Origin: Candidatus Omnitrophota bacterium
Lineage (GTDB): Bacteria; Omnitrophota; Gorgyraeia; 1-14-0-20-64-10
Direction of reading: 5' to 3'
Length of the DNA stretch: 64,000 nt
Assembly: GCA_016201735.1 (NCBI GenBank)
Contig: JACQCH010000038.1
Span: 19,948-83,947 of the forward strand
The position numbers and the translations under genes were made by a program. Of this stretch, positions 12,693-58,772 are shown piece after piece (positions within the stretch are counted from its first letter, which is position 1; each line of letters begins with the position of its first letter). The notes beneath the pieces are model-generated. The model saw only the letters and a list, made by a program, of their open reading frames with translations, was not told where the DNA came from and ran no database searches.

Positions 12693-12790
12693 CAAAAAGT
12701 TCGACCAACTTGCATCACAATCATAGAATGGAAGAATTTTGTGTGACCTGCATAGAAGGTATACAATTTCTGAGTTGGTCGAACTTTTTG
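12693..12790 (+). promoter_or_regulatory. 18-bp perfect inverted repeat (CAAAAAGTTCGACCAACT / AGTTGGTCGAACTTTTTG) with 62-nt spacer abutting the tRNA-Gly 5' end; candidate -10 TACAAT inside
   Basis: Read directly; right arm ends at the tRNA +1 G; TTGTGT-17nt-TACAAT promoter-like spacing inside the loop. Confidence 0.4.
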
Positions 12791-12860
12791 CGGGTGTAGT
12801 TCAATGGTAGAACGGGAGCTTCCCAAGCTCTTAATGGCGGTTCGATTCCGCTCACCCGCT
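12790..12860 (+). tRNA. tRNA-Gly (anticodon CCC)
   Basis: GCGGGTG acceptor/CACCCGC, D-arm GTTC..GAAC, anticodon stem GGAGC/GCTCT with loop TTCCCAA, T-loop TTCGATT, discriminator U; no encoded CCA. Confidence 0.8.
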
Positions 12861-24078: not shown

Positions 24079-24401
24079 CCCTGGCAACAATAGAGGAATT
24101 TCGGCTCCTTCAACTGAAGGTAGCCACCATCTTGGAAGCCAAGGCGCATCCCAACGCCGACAAGCTGCTGGTCTTGAAGGTGGATACCGGAGAATCTCAG
24201 AAGGAAATCGTCGCTGGCATTGCCCGTCACTACAATCCCGAGGATCTGCTCAACAAACGGATCGTCATTGTCGACAATCTCGAGCCGGCCACGATCCGTG
24301 GCGTGATCTCAAACGGGATGCTGCTGGCCGCCCAGGACGGAGAGAAGCTGTCCCTGATTGTTCCTGAGCGCCCCGTCGCGTCTGGGTCCAAGGTTCAGTG
24401 A
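24079..24401 (+). CDS. tRNA-binding protein (CsaA/EMAP-like OB fold)
   Basis: FRLLQLKVATILEAKAHPNADKLLVLKVDTGE...NGMLLA; no canonical in-frame start seen (start uncertain); stop TGA is the left flank of element copy 3. Confidence 0.65.
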
Positions 24402-24541
24402 CCCCGCCCCTCCGGAGTATGCCCTCGGCAGAGAAGGGGGGATCTTCACAATTTGAGTGGGAGATAGCCGAGGGCATCCGTGCCTTCGGCACAGCGCTTC
24501 CATCCCTGCAGGGATGGAAGCGAAACTCCGGAGGGGCGGGG
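24402..24541. repeat. TGA-flanked palindromic intercistronic element, copy 3 (17-bp TIR CCCCGCCCCTCCGGAGT; TGA at 24399-24401 and 24542-24544)
   Basis: Perfect TIR; interior has three hairpins: ATGCCCTCGGC...GCCGAGGGCAT, GTGCCttcgGCAC (UUCG tetraloop), CGCTTCCATCCCTGCAGGGATGGAAGCG. Confidence 0.75.
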
Positions 24542-25167
24542 TGACGATGGAATCCGTCGTCGGTTTTCTCCTGCTGTTCCCGATCTTCATGGCGGCGGTG
24601 GTTGTCCACGAGGTCAGCCATGGCTGGGTGGCGTTGGCCTTGGGAGACCGGACCGCCCTGGCGGCCGGCCGCCTGACCCTGAATCCTTTCAAGCATATGG
24701 ACCCGATCGGGACGGTGGCTCTTCCGCTCATGCTTACGCTGATCCGTTCCCCATTTGTTTTTGGCTGGGCCAAACCGGTGCCCGTGAATTTCATGAACCT
24801 GCGCCGCCCGAAGAGAGACATGCTCTGGGTCGGGGCCGCGGGTCCGGCGGCAAATTTCACTCTGGCGGCAGCGGTCGCTTTTCTTCTAAGAGGGCTCGGA
24901 TCCGCTCTGCCTCTTTGGGCGATTGGGGCCGCCAAGTATCTGATCCTGATCAATCTGATTTTGGGGGTGTTTAATCTGATCCCCATTCCTCCTCTGGATG
25001 GTTCCCGGATTCTCACGGGCCTGCTCCCCTCCCGTTTTGCGAGGGAGGTTCTCCTTCTGGAGCGGTGGGGAACGGTTCTGGTGGTGATCCTGCTTCTCAT
25101 GGGTCTTCTCGATCGGGTTCTTCTGCCGGCGGTCTCCTTTCTCGCTCGGCTGCTGGGGATCTCATGA
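24541..25167 (+). CDS. Site-2 protease family (peptidase M50) membrane protein
   Basis: HEVSHGWVALALGD HExxH motif in TM helix; start either GTG 24541 (element-supplied, SD GGAGG 24530) or ATG 24547. Confidence 0.8.
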   Translation: MTMESVVGFLLLFPIFMAAVVVHEVSHGWVALALGDRTALAAGRLTLNPFKHMDPIGTVALPLMLTLIRSPFVFGWAKPVPVNFMNLRRPKRDMLWVGAAGPAANFTLAAAVAFLLRGLGSALPLWAIGAAKYLILINLILGVFNLIPIPPLDGSRILTGLLPSRFAREVLLLERWGTVLVVILLLMGLLDRVLLPAVSFLARLLGIS

Positions 25168-29867: not shown

Positions 29868-30230
29868 ATGTGGCAAGGAATGAATCAACGGCGTTTCCCC
29901 CGAACGAAATGTCAGTGCAAGGTCCGGATGAAGCAGCAGGGGCACACCTTCACAATCTCCACCGTTACGGAGAATGTCGGCCTCGGGGGTGTCTGTGTCT
30001 ACTTGGAGAAGGGACTGGATATCTTCTCTCCGGTTGATCTGGAGCTTATCCTGGGGGATGGAAAGCCTCCGGTCAAGATCCAAGGGACCATTGTTTGGGT
30101 GGTTCGACGGCGCGAGTTCAAGAAGGGGTACTGTTTTGACACGGGGGTGGAGTTTGCCGAGTTGTCGCCGGAGGACAAGGCTCGTCTTGATTCCGTCATC
30201 GATAAAGTCAGCCCCCCTTCGTTCCCTTGA
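29868..30230 (+). CDS. PilZ domain protein
   Basis: RRFPR...DLSxGG-like PilZ motifs (QRRFPRTKC...TENVGLGGVCV). Confidence 0.8.
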   Translation: MWQGMNQRRFPRTKCQCKVRMKQQGHTFTISTVTENVGLGGVCVYLEKGLDIFSPVDLELILGDGKPPVKIQGTIVWVVRRREFKKGYCFDTGVEFAELSPEDKARLDSVIDKVSPPSFP

Positions 30231-30420
30231 CCCCGCCCCTCCATGGGTTTCTCTGGGGCAAGGTGGGATGGAATACGTAGGCTTCAGAATGCCAGGTAGG
30301 ATATTATCCCGTGGGTTCATTTCCGATTTGCCCCAGAGAATAAAAGCTCATGGAGCTTTTCGGGCCGCCCCCGATGCTCCTCAACTAAGTTTAGGCGTCC
30401 CGACCCATGGAGGGGCGGGG
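30231..30420. repeat. TGA-flanked palindromic intercistronic element, copy 4 (19-bp TIR; TGA at 30228-30230 and 30421-30423)
   Basis: CCCCGCCCCTCCATGGGT...ACCCATGGAGGGGCGGGG; inner 13-bp stem TTCTCTGGGGCAA/TTGCCCCAGAGAA and hairpin AAAAGCTCatgGAGCTTTT. Confidence 0.75.
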
Positions 30421-30812
30421 TGACCGACACAAATATTGAGCCCGCTCTTCTGTATTCCGTCCTCTGCGATGACGTCCGTCGGGAAGACAACGGCAAGTTC
30501 ATCCTGCTGGGATTATTTGAGACGATCGGGGCCCGGGAATTTCCCGCCGCCCACCCGGCCCTGTTTATCGTGAACGGCTGGATTGGAGGAGTCGGATCCT
30601 TTCGCCAGTACAGCCGGATCTTGGATCCCGGCGGTCAGGAGATTGCCAGGGATCAGGAGACAACCTTCCAGCTCGCCACCCTCAAGGCCCGCCACTCCGT
30701 CATTGCCCGGTTCAACAATCTGGAGCTTCCCCAGCTGGGGGAGTATGCGGTTGAGGTCCTGTTAAACGGGGACTTAAAGGTTCGCTATCCGCTGGTGGTA
30801 GAGCAGGCCTAG
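30420..30812 (+). CDS. Hypothetical protein
   Basis: 130 aa; GTG start is the last G of the element TIR plus TG of the flanking TGA; SD GGAGG 30409-30413. Confidence 0.55.
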   Translation: MTDTNIEPALLYSVLCDDVRREDNGKFILLGLFETIGAREFPAAHPALFIVNGWIGGVGSFRQYSRILDPGGQEIARDQETTFQLATLKARHSVIARFNNLELPQLGEYAVEVLLNGDLKVRYPLVVEQA

Positions 30813-41833: not shown

Positions 41834-42613
41834 ATGTTCGTCACTCTCCTAACGGATTTCGGTCTTGAGGACGAATACGTCGGAGTGATGAAGGGGGTGA
41901 TTTTGGGAATCAATCCTTCCGCCACCCTCGTCGATCTCTCTCATCAGGTCCCGCCGGGGGATGTCCGGAAAGCCGGCTGGCTGTTGGCCTGGAGCTGGCC
42001 CTATTTCCCGAAGGGAACGGTTCACCTGGTCGTTGTGGATCCTGGAGTTGGATCCTCCCGGCGGATCCTTTGCCTGGGCCACAGAGGGCACACCTTCCTT
42101 GCTCCGGACAACGGGGTGCTCACTCCTTTACTGGCGGCAATCCGACGGCCCGCGATTTATTCGGTGGAGAACCGGCGTTACGCCCTGGGGAAGATCAGCG
42201 ATACCTTTCACGGGCGGGACATCTTCGCTCCTGCCGCCGGATATTTGTCCAAGGGCTTGTCGGCCTCCCGCCTGGGCCCGAGGGTGAAGGCCTTCAAGGT
42301 GATTCCGATGAGAGGGATCAAGCAGGGCTCCGGTTTTCTGGAGGGGCGGGTGATCGGTTTCGACCGGTTTGGAAACGCGGTGACGAATTTGCCCGCGGAT
42401 AAGATTCAGCGCTTGTTGGCCCGAGGGAAGATCAAGATCCGTATCGGGAGGCATCTCTTGAAAAATATTCATCGCTCCTACGAGGCGGTCGCCCCCGGGA
42501 CTGCCCTTGCGGTGATCGGGAGTCACGACCTGTTGGAGATCGCGGTCTATCGAGGGTCGGCAAAGCGGCGACTCCATTTGACGGAGGGGGAGTCGGTGAG
42601 GGTTGCCGGATGA
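41834..42613 (+). CDS. SAM hydroxide adenosyltransferase family (DUF62/fluorinase-like)
   Basis: LLTDFGLEDEYVGVMKGVI...VVDPGVGS signature. Confidence 0.8.
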   Translation: MFVTLLTDFGLEDEYVGVMKGVILGINPSATLVDLSHQVPPGDVRKAGWLLAWSWPYFPKGTVHLVVVDPGVGSSRRILCLGHRGHTFLAPDNGVLTPLLAAIRRPAIYSVENRRYALGKISDTFHGRDIFAPAAGYLSKGLSASRLGPRVKAFKVIPMRGIKQGSGFLEGRVIGFDRFGNAVTNLPADKIQRLLARGKIKIRIGRHLLKNIHRSYEAVAPGTALAVIGSHDLLEIAVYRGSAKRRLHLTEGESVRVAG

Positions 42614-43041
42614 AGTTTAAGCGGCAGTTCTCGTCCGGAGGAATTGTTTTTCGGAAAACCGGCGCGGGGCTCCGGGTGGCTTTGATCTCCCGCGAGGGAG
42701 GAAAGATCTGGTGTTTGCCCAAAGGGTTGATTGAGAAAGGGGAATCGGTTCAGGAGACGGCGCTGAGAGAGGTCCGGGAGGAGACCGGTTTGATCGGGAA
42801 GATCGTCCGAAAGCTGGGGGATGTGAGCTACTGGTATGTCTCCGATGAGGAAGGAACGAAGTTCTTCAAGAAGGTCTCTTTTTTCCTCCTTAAGCATCAG
42901 GGAGGGAATACCCGTCACCATGATTTTGAGGTGGATGAAGTGGCCTGGATGCCGGTGGAGAAGGCCCTCCGGAAACTGACCTATGAGAGTGAGCGGAGAT
43001 TGATGTTGCGGGCCAAGAGGTTGGTTGGAGGGGCGGGGTGA
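42610..43041 (+). CDS. NUDIX hydrolase
   Basis: Nudix box GLIEKGESVQETALREVREETG; last 4 codons plus stop are a solo element end (GGAGGGGCGGGGTGA). Confidence 0.8.
   Translation: MKFKRQFSSGGIVFRKTGAGLRVALISREGGKIWCLPKGLIEKGESVQETALREVREETGLIGKIVRKLGDVSYWYVSDEEGTKFFKKVSFFLLKHQGGNTRHHDFEVDEVAWMPVEKALRKLTYESERRLMLRAKRLVGGAG
43027..43041. repeat. Solo right end of the TGA-flanked element (GGAGGGGCGGGG+TGA) embedded in the NUDIX 3' end / polX start
   Basis: Exact 15-mer match to the right termini of copies 1, 3, 4; provides SD GGAGG, GTG start of polX (43038) and TGA stop of NUDIX (43039-43041); no left end found upstream. Confidence 0.55.
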
Positions 43042-58164: not shown

Positions 58165-58772
58165 AAGGATCCCCCCTGTTTGGAGAAGGCGCTGATCACC
58201 AGGGTGGCTTTCTGGTATTCCCCGGAGGGGACAAGAAGCATCTCTCCCTCAGAACGGGATGACTCCCCAGCGGGGATCTCGCCAATTTCCAGTCGGTCTA
58301 CTTTCAATAAGGGTTCATGTTGTTCCAGGGTGCCGAGAAAATTTAAGAGGTTTAGAAGATTGGAGGTCGCCTCCACCTCTATCTGGAATCTTGTGAAGGA
58401 TCCCAGGTTCAGCTCCGTTCTGGGAGCCACGGATTCGATCTGCAAGCCCGCCTTGGATGCCAAGCGGGACACCTCACTGATGAGGTTCGGGGTGCCCCCC
58501 TGAAGAAGCACTGCTTTCTTGAGCCTCTCAAGTTCAGCGGTTTGTCGGTGAAGAGTAGAGGCCAAGGTCAGGCGTTCCTCTGCCTGTTTTTCCTGCTCCA
58601 ACAGAAGGAGACGGCGTTCAACCCAGGGAGCGTGAATGAATACAAGCCCGGCGGTTCCCGTTGCGACGATCATTCCGATCGTCAGAAGAAGCAGCTTCTG
58701 GGACCGGGGGATCTGTTCCCCCATGGAGGAGAGATGGCTCTTCAGGAGGCCGCGGGCCTTTGACGGACTCAT
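58161..58772 (-). CDS. pilO: Pilus assembly protein PilO-like
   Basis: TM plus coiled coil plus C-terminal domain; synteny. Confidence 0.6.
   Translation of the reverse strand: MSPSKARGLLKSHLSSMGEQIPRSQKLLLLTIGMIVATGTAGLVFIHAPWVERRLLLLEQEKQAEERLTLASTLHRQTAELERLKKAVLLQGGTPNLISEVSRLASKAGLQIESVAPRTELNLGSFTRFQIEVEATSNLLNLLNFLGTLEQHEPLLKVDRLEIGEIPAGESSRSEGEMLLVPSGEYQKATLVISAFSKQGGSL

Follow-up and report, generated by a model that had tools for sequence, protein, structure and literature searches.

A start-codon-resident miniature inverted-repeat element of Omnitrophota that probably acts as a translated relay cistron

Mycobacterial interspersed repetitive units (MIRUs) are direct, often tandem units of 46-101 bp found in Actinobacteria and, to our knowledge, have neither terminal inverted repeats, nor a recognised target duplication, nor a closing hairpin. 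Here we compare them, and other short repeats, with an element family of Omnitrophota that is represented by several copies in a 64,000-nucleotide stretch of a groundwater Omnitrophota metagenome-assembled genome (MAG; locus tags HY211_); this whole stretch is called the window, and coordinates refer to it unless another locus is named. According to the passage of PMC12548453 that cites Supply et al. 1997, MIRUs insert at start codons and contain an internal open reading frame (ORF) that is coupled at a -4 nt spacing, an arrangement thought to minimise the effect on expression. As far as that passage goes, the Omnitrophota elements are alike in being short, apparently mobile repeats at operon start codons with an internal ORF that is coupled, here putatively, to the host gene: in 37 of 51 copies, an internal ORF of the MIRU type opens on the NTGA overlap and closes on GTGA. 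Because of the MIRU precedent the concept is not new, and an earlier note on this DNA, which had taken a mobile element with its own stop, masked ribosome-binding site and start to be no described class, put this too strongly (PMC12548453). Unlike MIRUs, the Omnitrophota copies stand singly rather than as direct or tandem units, form hairpins, have inverted termini and duplicate their target; moreover, their terminus encodes a Shine-Dalgarno (SD) sequence together with the first base of a new start codon, and they are open in both orientations. It is the vehicle that differs from what is known, namely a true MITE (miniature inverted-repeat transposable element) whose terminus encodes the SD sequence and the first base of the rebuilt start.

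Classical MITEs (Correia/CREE, RUP, BOX-associated, Nezha and MITEAba12 elements; PMC3184786) likewise have inverted termini and a target duplication, are small, lack a transposase gene, occur in many copies and give hairpin transcripts. They are, however, mostly intergenic and act via promoters, IHF sites, RNA processing and occasional in-frame fusions (PMC3184786). BOX elements can sporadically donate stops or starts, and in the literature on MITEs, start codons and coupling we found no report of an element that lies systematically on start codons or rebuilds them. The REP2 repeats of Neisseria and the IR repeats of Borrelia carry a promoter, ribosome-binding site and ATG but are not MITEs: terminal inverted repeats and a target duplication are both lacking, and the repeats are not known to split an existing start codon or to be translated through. 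Rickettsia palindromic elements insert in frame within genes and become part of the protein. They share with the Omnitrophota family a palindromic structure, mobility and compatibility with host translation, whereas the latter prefers a length (element plus duplication) of 2 mod 3, that is, a separate cistron that ends on the duplicated TGA. A further likeness is to synthetic bicistronic designs and to coupling by RNA unfolding or reinitiation, in which a short leader cistron holds the SD sequence, its stop overlaps the next start and the ribosome removes the structure; the downstream ribosome-binding site is silent when the leader is untranslated. While these known cases of coupling are fixed features of operons, phages or engineered constructs, the Omnitrophota architecture is delivered by a transposable element.

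Copies of the element were collected with a paired-end terminus pattern from one genome per species (at least 80 loci, numbered with the prefix L) and, independently, by a scan of metagenome contigs; both scans demanded perfect 12-nt termini at each end of the element. This yielded 51 unique copies from related genomes and metagenomes, which fall into 29 clusters by interior similarity. The 12-nt termini are invariant (left CCCCGCCCCTCC, right GGAGGGGCGGGG), the inverted arms are perfect within each copy over about 12-19 nt, and the elements measure 95-190 nt, with a single outlier of 322 nt, and contain no transposase gene. Among the first 38 copies, the flanking duplication was TGA/TCA in 28 and a 4-bp sequence (TGAA, TAAA, TGGA or TTGA) in nine; one GCG pair was attributed to chance and excluded. 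The duplication is always the same on both sides of a given copy and differs from copy to copy, and is therefore a target-site duplication and not element sequence. This corrects the view in the earlier note that the element carries its own stop, since the TGA belongs to the host target and varies (TGA, TGAA, TAAA, TGGA, TTGA). Empty sites in relatives carry a single TGA, and sites that are filled in L102 are GTGA, ATGA or TTGA starts in L047 and L067. With its inverted termini, 3-bp (sometimes 4-bp) duplication and exact empty sites, the family is a MITE of Omnitrophota. One subfamily was found in both orientations, both of them open, and most copies are open both ways. Hits flanked by direct repeats came from Omnitrophota MAGs and from ENA MAGs labelled Planctomycetia, which belong with the Omnitrophota hits; one of these, CAYJTC01, has the same gene order and an M50 protease 71% identical to that of the window. 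The termini lack the GTAG of REP/REPIN sequences and a duplication is present (the RAYT gene was not searched for), and the element ends are CCCCGCC and GGCGGGG rather than the integron attC core sites RYYYAAC and GTTRRRY.

The location of the copies is strikingly uniform. Of the 42 flanked by TGA, 41 occupy a start codon whose next base is A (ATGA, GTGA or TTGA) and have a junction GTG that continues in frame into a long ORF, a count that includes ORFs open to the end of the available sequence. With the copies oriented so that the duplication reads TGA, the left TGA is preceded by A in 25, by G in 11, by T in 5 and by C in 1 (n = 42), the composition to be expected if these are start codons, most of which would be ATG, followed by GTG and TTG. 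In 33-34 of the 42, a long upstream ORF also ends on the left TGA, while seven copies are start-only; at least three of these seven (L043 at 6006, L113 and L115) have a TATAAT-like or AT-rich sequence just upstream. Sites that serve as both stop and start of long ORFs make up 1.9% of 7,773 random TGA sites from the same loci versus 64% of the first 28 copies. Only one or two insertions were found at TGA stops without an overlapping start versus 41 at starts, though such insertions would be expected to be harmless. The reconstructed targets resemble ordinary gene starts (for example ..gtataatgtgagcggcATGAAGAAA..), and no SD-like or terminus-like motif at a fixed distance was evident in them by eye. 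One orthologous start, (M)KAILLAAGVG.., holds unrelated subfamilies in two lineages (L047, 1307-1413, 107 nt; L067, 772-914, 143 nt), which means either independent insertions or the replacement of one element by another. This near-exclusive location at starts points to active targeting, through a mechanism of target selection, or to a strong selective filter.

At the right junction, the terminal G of the element and the duplicated TG form a GTG in the frame of the gene, six bases after GGAGG. The split start is thereby replaced: comparison with the empty site shows that at copy 4 of the window an ancestral TTG has become GTG. The proposal in the earlier note that the right end supplies a consensus SD sequence, a 6-nt spacer and the G of GTG is borne out by real empty sites, namely the TTGA of the PilZ/DUF6941 pair and the polX start ATGAAGCAG. 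Likewise, the GTG codons at 346, 30420 and 43038, which the note had assigned as gene starts, are in frame with their downstream ORFs and coincide with the starts of the proteins deposited at NCBI, that is, at the level of gene-caller predictions. A re-check of the window found the note correct in every coordinate and frame, and its suggestion that SD sequence and start are masked agrees with RNA folding of the junctions, in which both lie in a predicted stem in copies 1, 3 and 4. For copy 3 (folded over 24380-24570), an 18-bp closing stem takes in the SD sequence and the G and U of GTG (-113.2 kcal/mol, z = -8.0); copies 1 and 4 fold alike, and TGA copies with G+C-rich interiors give folds of -80 to -115 kcal/mol. 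The SD sequence and GTG are thus predicted to be closed off in the terminal stem, where they pair with the opening codons of an upstream mini-ORF. Pairing of SD and start with sequence inside an upstream cistron is what unfolding-type coupling presupposes, and it is found here in silico.

This mini-ORF begins at the original start codon, which survives at the left junction and reads into the terminus in the frame (A)CC CCG CCC CTC, or M-T-P-P-L. From the retained start, 36 of the 42 TGA copies can be read through without a stop, whereas interior shuffles predict 31% (P about 2e-13); of the two remaining frames, one is open in 20 copies and the other in 16. In 37 of 51 copies the mini-ORF ends exactly on the right duplication (..GGA GGG GCG GGG TGA), in a four-base overlap with the new GTG. 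Such an ending needs a length plus duplication of 2 mod 3, and this is what we found in 40 of 51 copies, as compared to 1 mod 3 in eight and 0 mod 3 in three; with the 29 clusters as units, the rule holds at P about 2e-5. Copies of one cluster differ in length by multiples of three (149/143/140/152, 155/179 and 128/167 nt), and we read these triplet differences as a classic sign of reading-frame constraint. The rule was formed on the genome set and held in the independent metagenome set, in which 16 of 16 copies were in frame with a long ORF and 12 of 16 formed the exact relay. Together, the constraints on frame and length imply selection on translation.

The arrangement can be followed in copy 3 (24402..24541, + strand), a MITE of 140 nt that belongs to the same subfamily as the 143-nt copy of L067 but lies in the opposite orientation. 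Its left duplication TGA (24399..24401, +) is the stop of an ORF with a tRNA-binding domain and, together with G24398, constitutes the retained start GTGA. The left terminus CCCCGCCCCTCC follows (24402..24413, +), forming the 5' arm of the closing stem (to 24418) and reading T-P-P-L in the mini-ORF. At the other end, the right terminus GGAGGGGCGGGG (24530..24541, +) contains the SD sequence GGAGG at 24530-24534, supplies with G24541 the first base of the GTG and reads G-G-A-G in the mini-ORF. The right duplication TGA (24542..24544, +) is the mini-ORF stop and stands in the -4 overlap with GTG 24541-24543. The mini-ORF itself (24398..24544, +; 48 codons, VTPPLRSMPSAEKGGSSQFEWEIAEGIRAFGTALPSLQGWKRNSGGAG and a stop) is stop-free from the retained GTG 24398, and the other two frames have stops. 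The gene for a site-2 (M50) protease follows (24547..25167, +); its conserved start, ATG 24547, is in frame with GTG 24541 and begins 2 nt past the mini-ORF stop. A scan of 24200-24700 detected no promoter or terminator within copy 3; the terminator-like matches all lay outside the element, and two of them fell on a small stem-loop with a weak T run at the 5' end of the M50 gene.

Taking these data together, we consider it likely that the family is best understood as a MITE resident at start codons and serving as a relay cistron that is translated. Insertion duplicates the TGA of a start-plus-A tetranucleotide, very often the stop/start overlap of two cistrons, and the left side keeps the original SD sequence, the start codon and any upstream stop. 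According to the relay model, the element-borne SD sequence and GTG would be hidden in the mRNA by pairing with the opening codons of the mini-ORF, in a G+C stem of 12-19 bp. Ribosomes that initiate at the original start, or re-initiate after upstream termination at NTGA, would translate the mini-ORF of 33-60 codons (M-T-P-P-L ... G-G-A-G), and this translation through the element would open the stem hiding SD and GTG. Termination would then take place on the right UGA overlapping GUG, a classic -4 arrangement that would allow termination-reinitiation or coupling of the unfolding type; coupling is most efficient at -4 spacing, and RNA unfolding and ribosome reinitiation are both published models. 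In this way the downstream gene would stay under its own original initiation region, and the strong SD sequence of the element would be silent alone. We speculate that Pro-Pro at codons 3-4 might make the ribosome pause while it is over the 5' arm. Since the termini are symmetrical and most subfamilies are open both ways, either orientation should work, and the retained start together with the mini-ORF accounts for two-gene as well as start-only sites.

Several observations weigh against the relay model. All start codons cited for the downstream genes are gene-caller predictions from sequence. For copy 3, the earlier note had GTG 24541 in frame with ATG 24547, which holds, and had considered it as a start, which does not fit: the deposited M50 protein starts at ATG 24547 and four orthologs start at the equivalent ATG, so that the GTG is probably not the main start of this gene. 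About a quarter of the copies deviate from the exact relay. In copy 4 and four others, the length is 1 mod 3 and the mini-ORF stops inside the element, and in copy 1 (96 nt) and L133 (132 nt) it is 0 mod 3 and the frame reads straight through; copy 1 would thus give an in-frame N-terminal extension. Ribosomes would also need to unwind hairpins predicted to be very stable. As for sampling, the copies are non-independent, with an effective sample of about 29 clusters, and the requirement for perfect termini would over-sample copies whose termini are under selection, for example because they serve as SD sequences, and miss decayed intergenic ones. Finally, no autonomous partner or transposase with the same termini was found in the window, in the extended source contig or in about 100 loci, which were searched for distant terminus pairs (at most 3 mismatches each and 4 in total) as well as for long ORFs that extend inward from a terminus.

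The alternative that fares best is the mechanism favoured in the earlier note, in which the ribosome that ends upstream translation at the left UGA sits over the 12-nt 5' arm, melting the stem and making downstream expression strictly coupled to the upstream gene while the interior of the element stays untranslated. In its favour, the left TGA is the stop of a long upstream ORF in 33-34 of the 42 TGA copies and the stem begins right after this stop; furthermore, copies with an early stop, such as copy 4, can only work by occupancy of the 5' arm. As the general unmasking mechanism we nevertheless regard it as unlikely. The seven of 42 copies in which no upstream ORF ends on the left TGA are left without explanation, as are the stop-free frame, the 2 mod 3 rule and the triplet indels, and once the terminating ribosome leaves, refolding of the stem competes with initiation, a point made in a review of the field. 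Melting by the upstream ribosome can apply, however, as a special case at two-gene sites and in early-stop copies.

It is less probable still that the family is a passive MITE with a preference for TGA, whose location at starts was left by purifying selection and whose SD sequence, GTG and open frame are by-products, with the downstream genes initiating independently. A TGA/TCA duplication alone would indeed put some insertions at NTGA, copy 3 keeps the ATG of its gene, and a search for perfect termini favours conserved copies. Against this, copy 1, copy 4 and the solo end described below all have the original start cut off from the body of the gene, with the junction GTG as the only in-frame start beside the conserved N-terminus; stop-only insertions should be at least as harmless as those found and are yet outnumbered by 41 to one or two, and the frame and length constraints imply selection on translation.

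A further proposal goes beyond the relay model: that the family and its putative transposase actively target start codons, the element being a transposon-borne bicistronic cassette translatable in both orientations, in which the terminus has a triple role as presumed transposase-binding end (by analogy), as SD sequence plus first base of the new start, and as arm of the silencing stem. We put this forward tentatively, as a possibility that falls somewhat short of being probable. If true, it would provide the first demonstrated case of a DNA transposon that integrates specifically at start codons and needs to be translated.

We think it highly improbable that the element is read as protein, giving a functional peptide or an N-terminal extension in the manner of the Rickettsia elements: copy 1 and L133, both with an open frame and 0 mod 3, can lengthen Memo and a second protein at the N-terminus, and the NUDIX protein of the window ends in an element-encoded GGAG, but 0 mod 3 occurs in only three of 51 copies, and the peptides share just MTPPL and GGAG and otherwise differ among the 29 clusters and between orientations. 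The least probable explanation is a structured regulatory RNA or processing site (an RNase III target, stabiliser or attenuator) rather than a translation device, since, despite very stable hairpins (z = -8 to -14) and the processing by RNase III of other bacterial MITEs such as Correia elements, the interiors are unconserved across clusters, Rfam 15 returned no match to the element (best a plant miRNA model at 28.9 bits versus a gathering score of 96; in the window only two tRNAs scored), no promoter-like site was found and terminator-like matches in 24200-24700 fell outside the element, and both the frame constraints and the position at start codons would be left unexplained.

The relay model would have several consequences. 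A DNA transposon could occupy start codons and stop/start overlaps within operons, the most tightly constrained sites of a compact genome, without polar effects, which would extend the MIRU idea to a true MITE and make the cassette a natural analogue of synthetic bicistronic design. Dozens of natural variants (exact relays, early-stop copies, in-frame copies and solo ends) make unfolding versus reinitiation testable. For annotation, many real starts in these genomes would be element-derived GTGs, and many ORFs of 33-60 codons are probably translated.

Allowing at most one mismatch, the 12-mer GGAGGGGCGGGG or its complement occurs nine times in the window, as compared to a shuffle mean of 2.2, and none of 100 shuffles reached nine. 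The matches represent three intact elements, one copy with a decayed right end, one solo right end and one chance match; the last of these (42340-42351, one mismatch) sits within a conserved coding segment, LEGRVIGFDRFGN, and was rejected. The intact copies have TGA on both sides and inverted arms that are perfect over 18-21 nt, and their interiors differ. About 20 NTGA overlaps of the window are still unoccupied. One of them, the ATGA stop/start overlap at 58769..58772 (- strand) between a PilM/N-like gene and the T2SS-M-like gene that follows it, is a natural empty site, as its orthologue in L065 holds a 107-nt copy.

Copy 4 (30228..30423, +) consists of a 190-nt element at 30231-30420 with TGA on each side. 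It splits the ancestral TTGA overlap of the PilZ and DUF6941 genes, and GTG 30420 is the new DUF6941 start; its mini-ORF, from TTG 30227, stops after 17 codons. The empty site in L129 reads ..ctcc T TGA ccaac.., and the window ..ttccc T TGA, 190 nt of element, TGA ccgac... Judged by identity of the DUF6941 protein to that of the window, the site is filled in L127 (99%) and empty, with a four-base overlap, in L129 (93%) and the P0133 contig (94%).

The solo right terminus with its TGA (43027..43041, +; terminus 43027-43038) lies at the junction of the NUDIX and polX genes. It encodes the last four codons of NUDIX and the stop (..GGAG), as well as the SD sequence and GTG 43038 of polX. The NUDIX protein accordingly ends in ..KRLVGGAG in the window versus ..KRLLEPR or ..KRFIEP in orthologs, with about three native residues lost, and polX orthologs start with ATGAAGCAG right after the NUDIX stop, whereas polX of the window starts at the junction GTG. 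From this comparison, the solo end is the remnant of an element once inserted at the polX ATGA, a case in which the right terminus has apparently been kept as a working SD sequence, start and stop after loss of the element. A second solo right terminus at a gene junction, in L074 around 6857, likewise gives the upstream protein its ..GGAG end and stop and the downstream gene its SD sequence and GTG.

Copy 1 (248..349, +) is a 96-nt element at 251-346 with TGA on each side. Its length plus duplication is 0 mod 3 with an open frame, in which TTG 247 reads through into Memo, and GTG 346 is the deposited Memo start. The copy is enclosed, as loop sequence, by another palindromic repeat unrelated to it at 208-389 (GTCATTGCGAGCGAAC..GAAGCAATCTC // GAGATTGCTTC..CTCCTCGCGATGAC) and therefore represents a nested insertion, with two repeat families at one gene junction. 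The region 208-389 folds at -129.8 kcal/mol (z = -14), and the arms of the outer palindrome encode the end of the upstream ORF (C-terminus ..SLRANEVIEAISH before the stop) and the N-terminus of Memo.

The decayed copy 2 (1207..1353, +) is still intact at its left end, which follows the Memo stop (ATGA), with the element running from 1210, but its right terminus has degenerated to GGAGGGCGGCCGG at 1341-1353. It is followed by a 71-codon ORF at 1408-1623, which we take to be DUF1844-like. A related Logan contig ends 26 nt into copy 2, which indicates that the element repeats break assemblies.

At the copy 3 junction, an exact empty site was not obtained from the orthologs, as in these the tRNA-binding gene and M50 are separated by an additional gene, YjeF_N (NAD(P)HX epimerase; L123, 2326-3001; L124). 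In L123 the tRNA-binding gene ends and YjeF_N starts in an ATGA overlap, and the window has no YjeF_N gene anywhere. The gene may have been lost when DNA between two copies of the element was deleted, with copy 3 as what remained. Directly 3' of the element, a stem-loop of 8-9 bp at 24542-24562 (GACGATGG-AAT-CCGTCGTC) encloses the M50 ATG 24547; to judge by their sequence, it appears to be absent from the orthologs in L123-L125.

Other hits of the searches fall outside the start-codon pattern. L051, L064 and L080 constitute a branch of the family with lower G+C content and 4-bp duplications (TAAA and TGAA). These insertions lie in the loop of a small hairpin (GGAGCCG-ATAAAT-CCGGCTCC), away from gene starts, and their target preference seems to be different. 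More than half of the genome-scan loci listed were set aside as class B, in which the 12-mer is internal to long palindromes and has no target duplication; their hosts are Chloroflexi, Bacteroidota, Armatimonadota and high-GC Actinobacteria. Class B loci L044, L045, L050, L055 and many more are G+C-rich palindromes that are multi-copy within genomes. A single-end 15-mer search was abandoned as it returned only chance-level matches (42 single matches in viral contigs), and no viral copies of the element were found.

Two further features of the window involve tRNA-Gly sequences. The segment 41181-41270 was called by ARAGORN as a 90-nt tRNA-Gly(CCC), has no Rfam tRNA match at the gathering score; probably the call is false, or the segment is an unusual tRNA-like sequence within an ORF. 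At 12693-12790 lies a perfect 18-nt inverted repeat with a 62-nt spacer, the right arm of which ends on the first base of a tRNA-Gly gene (12790-12860).

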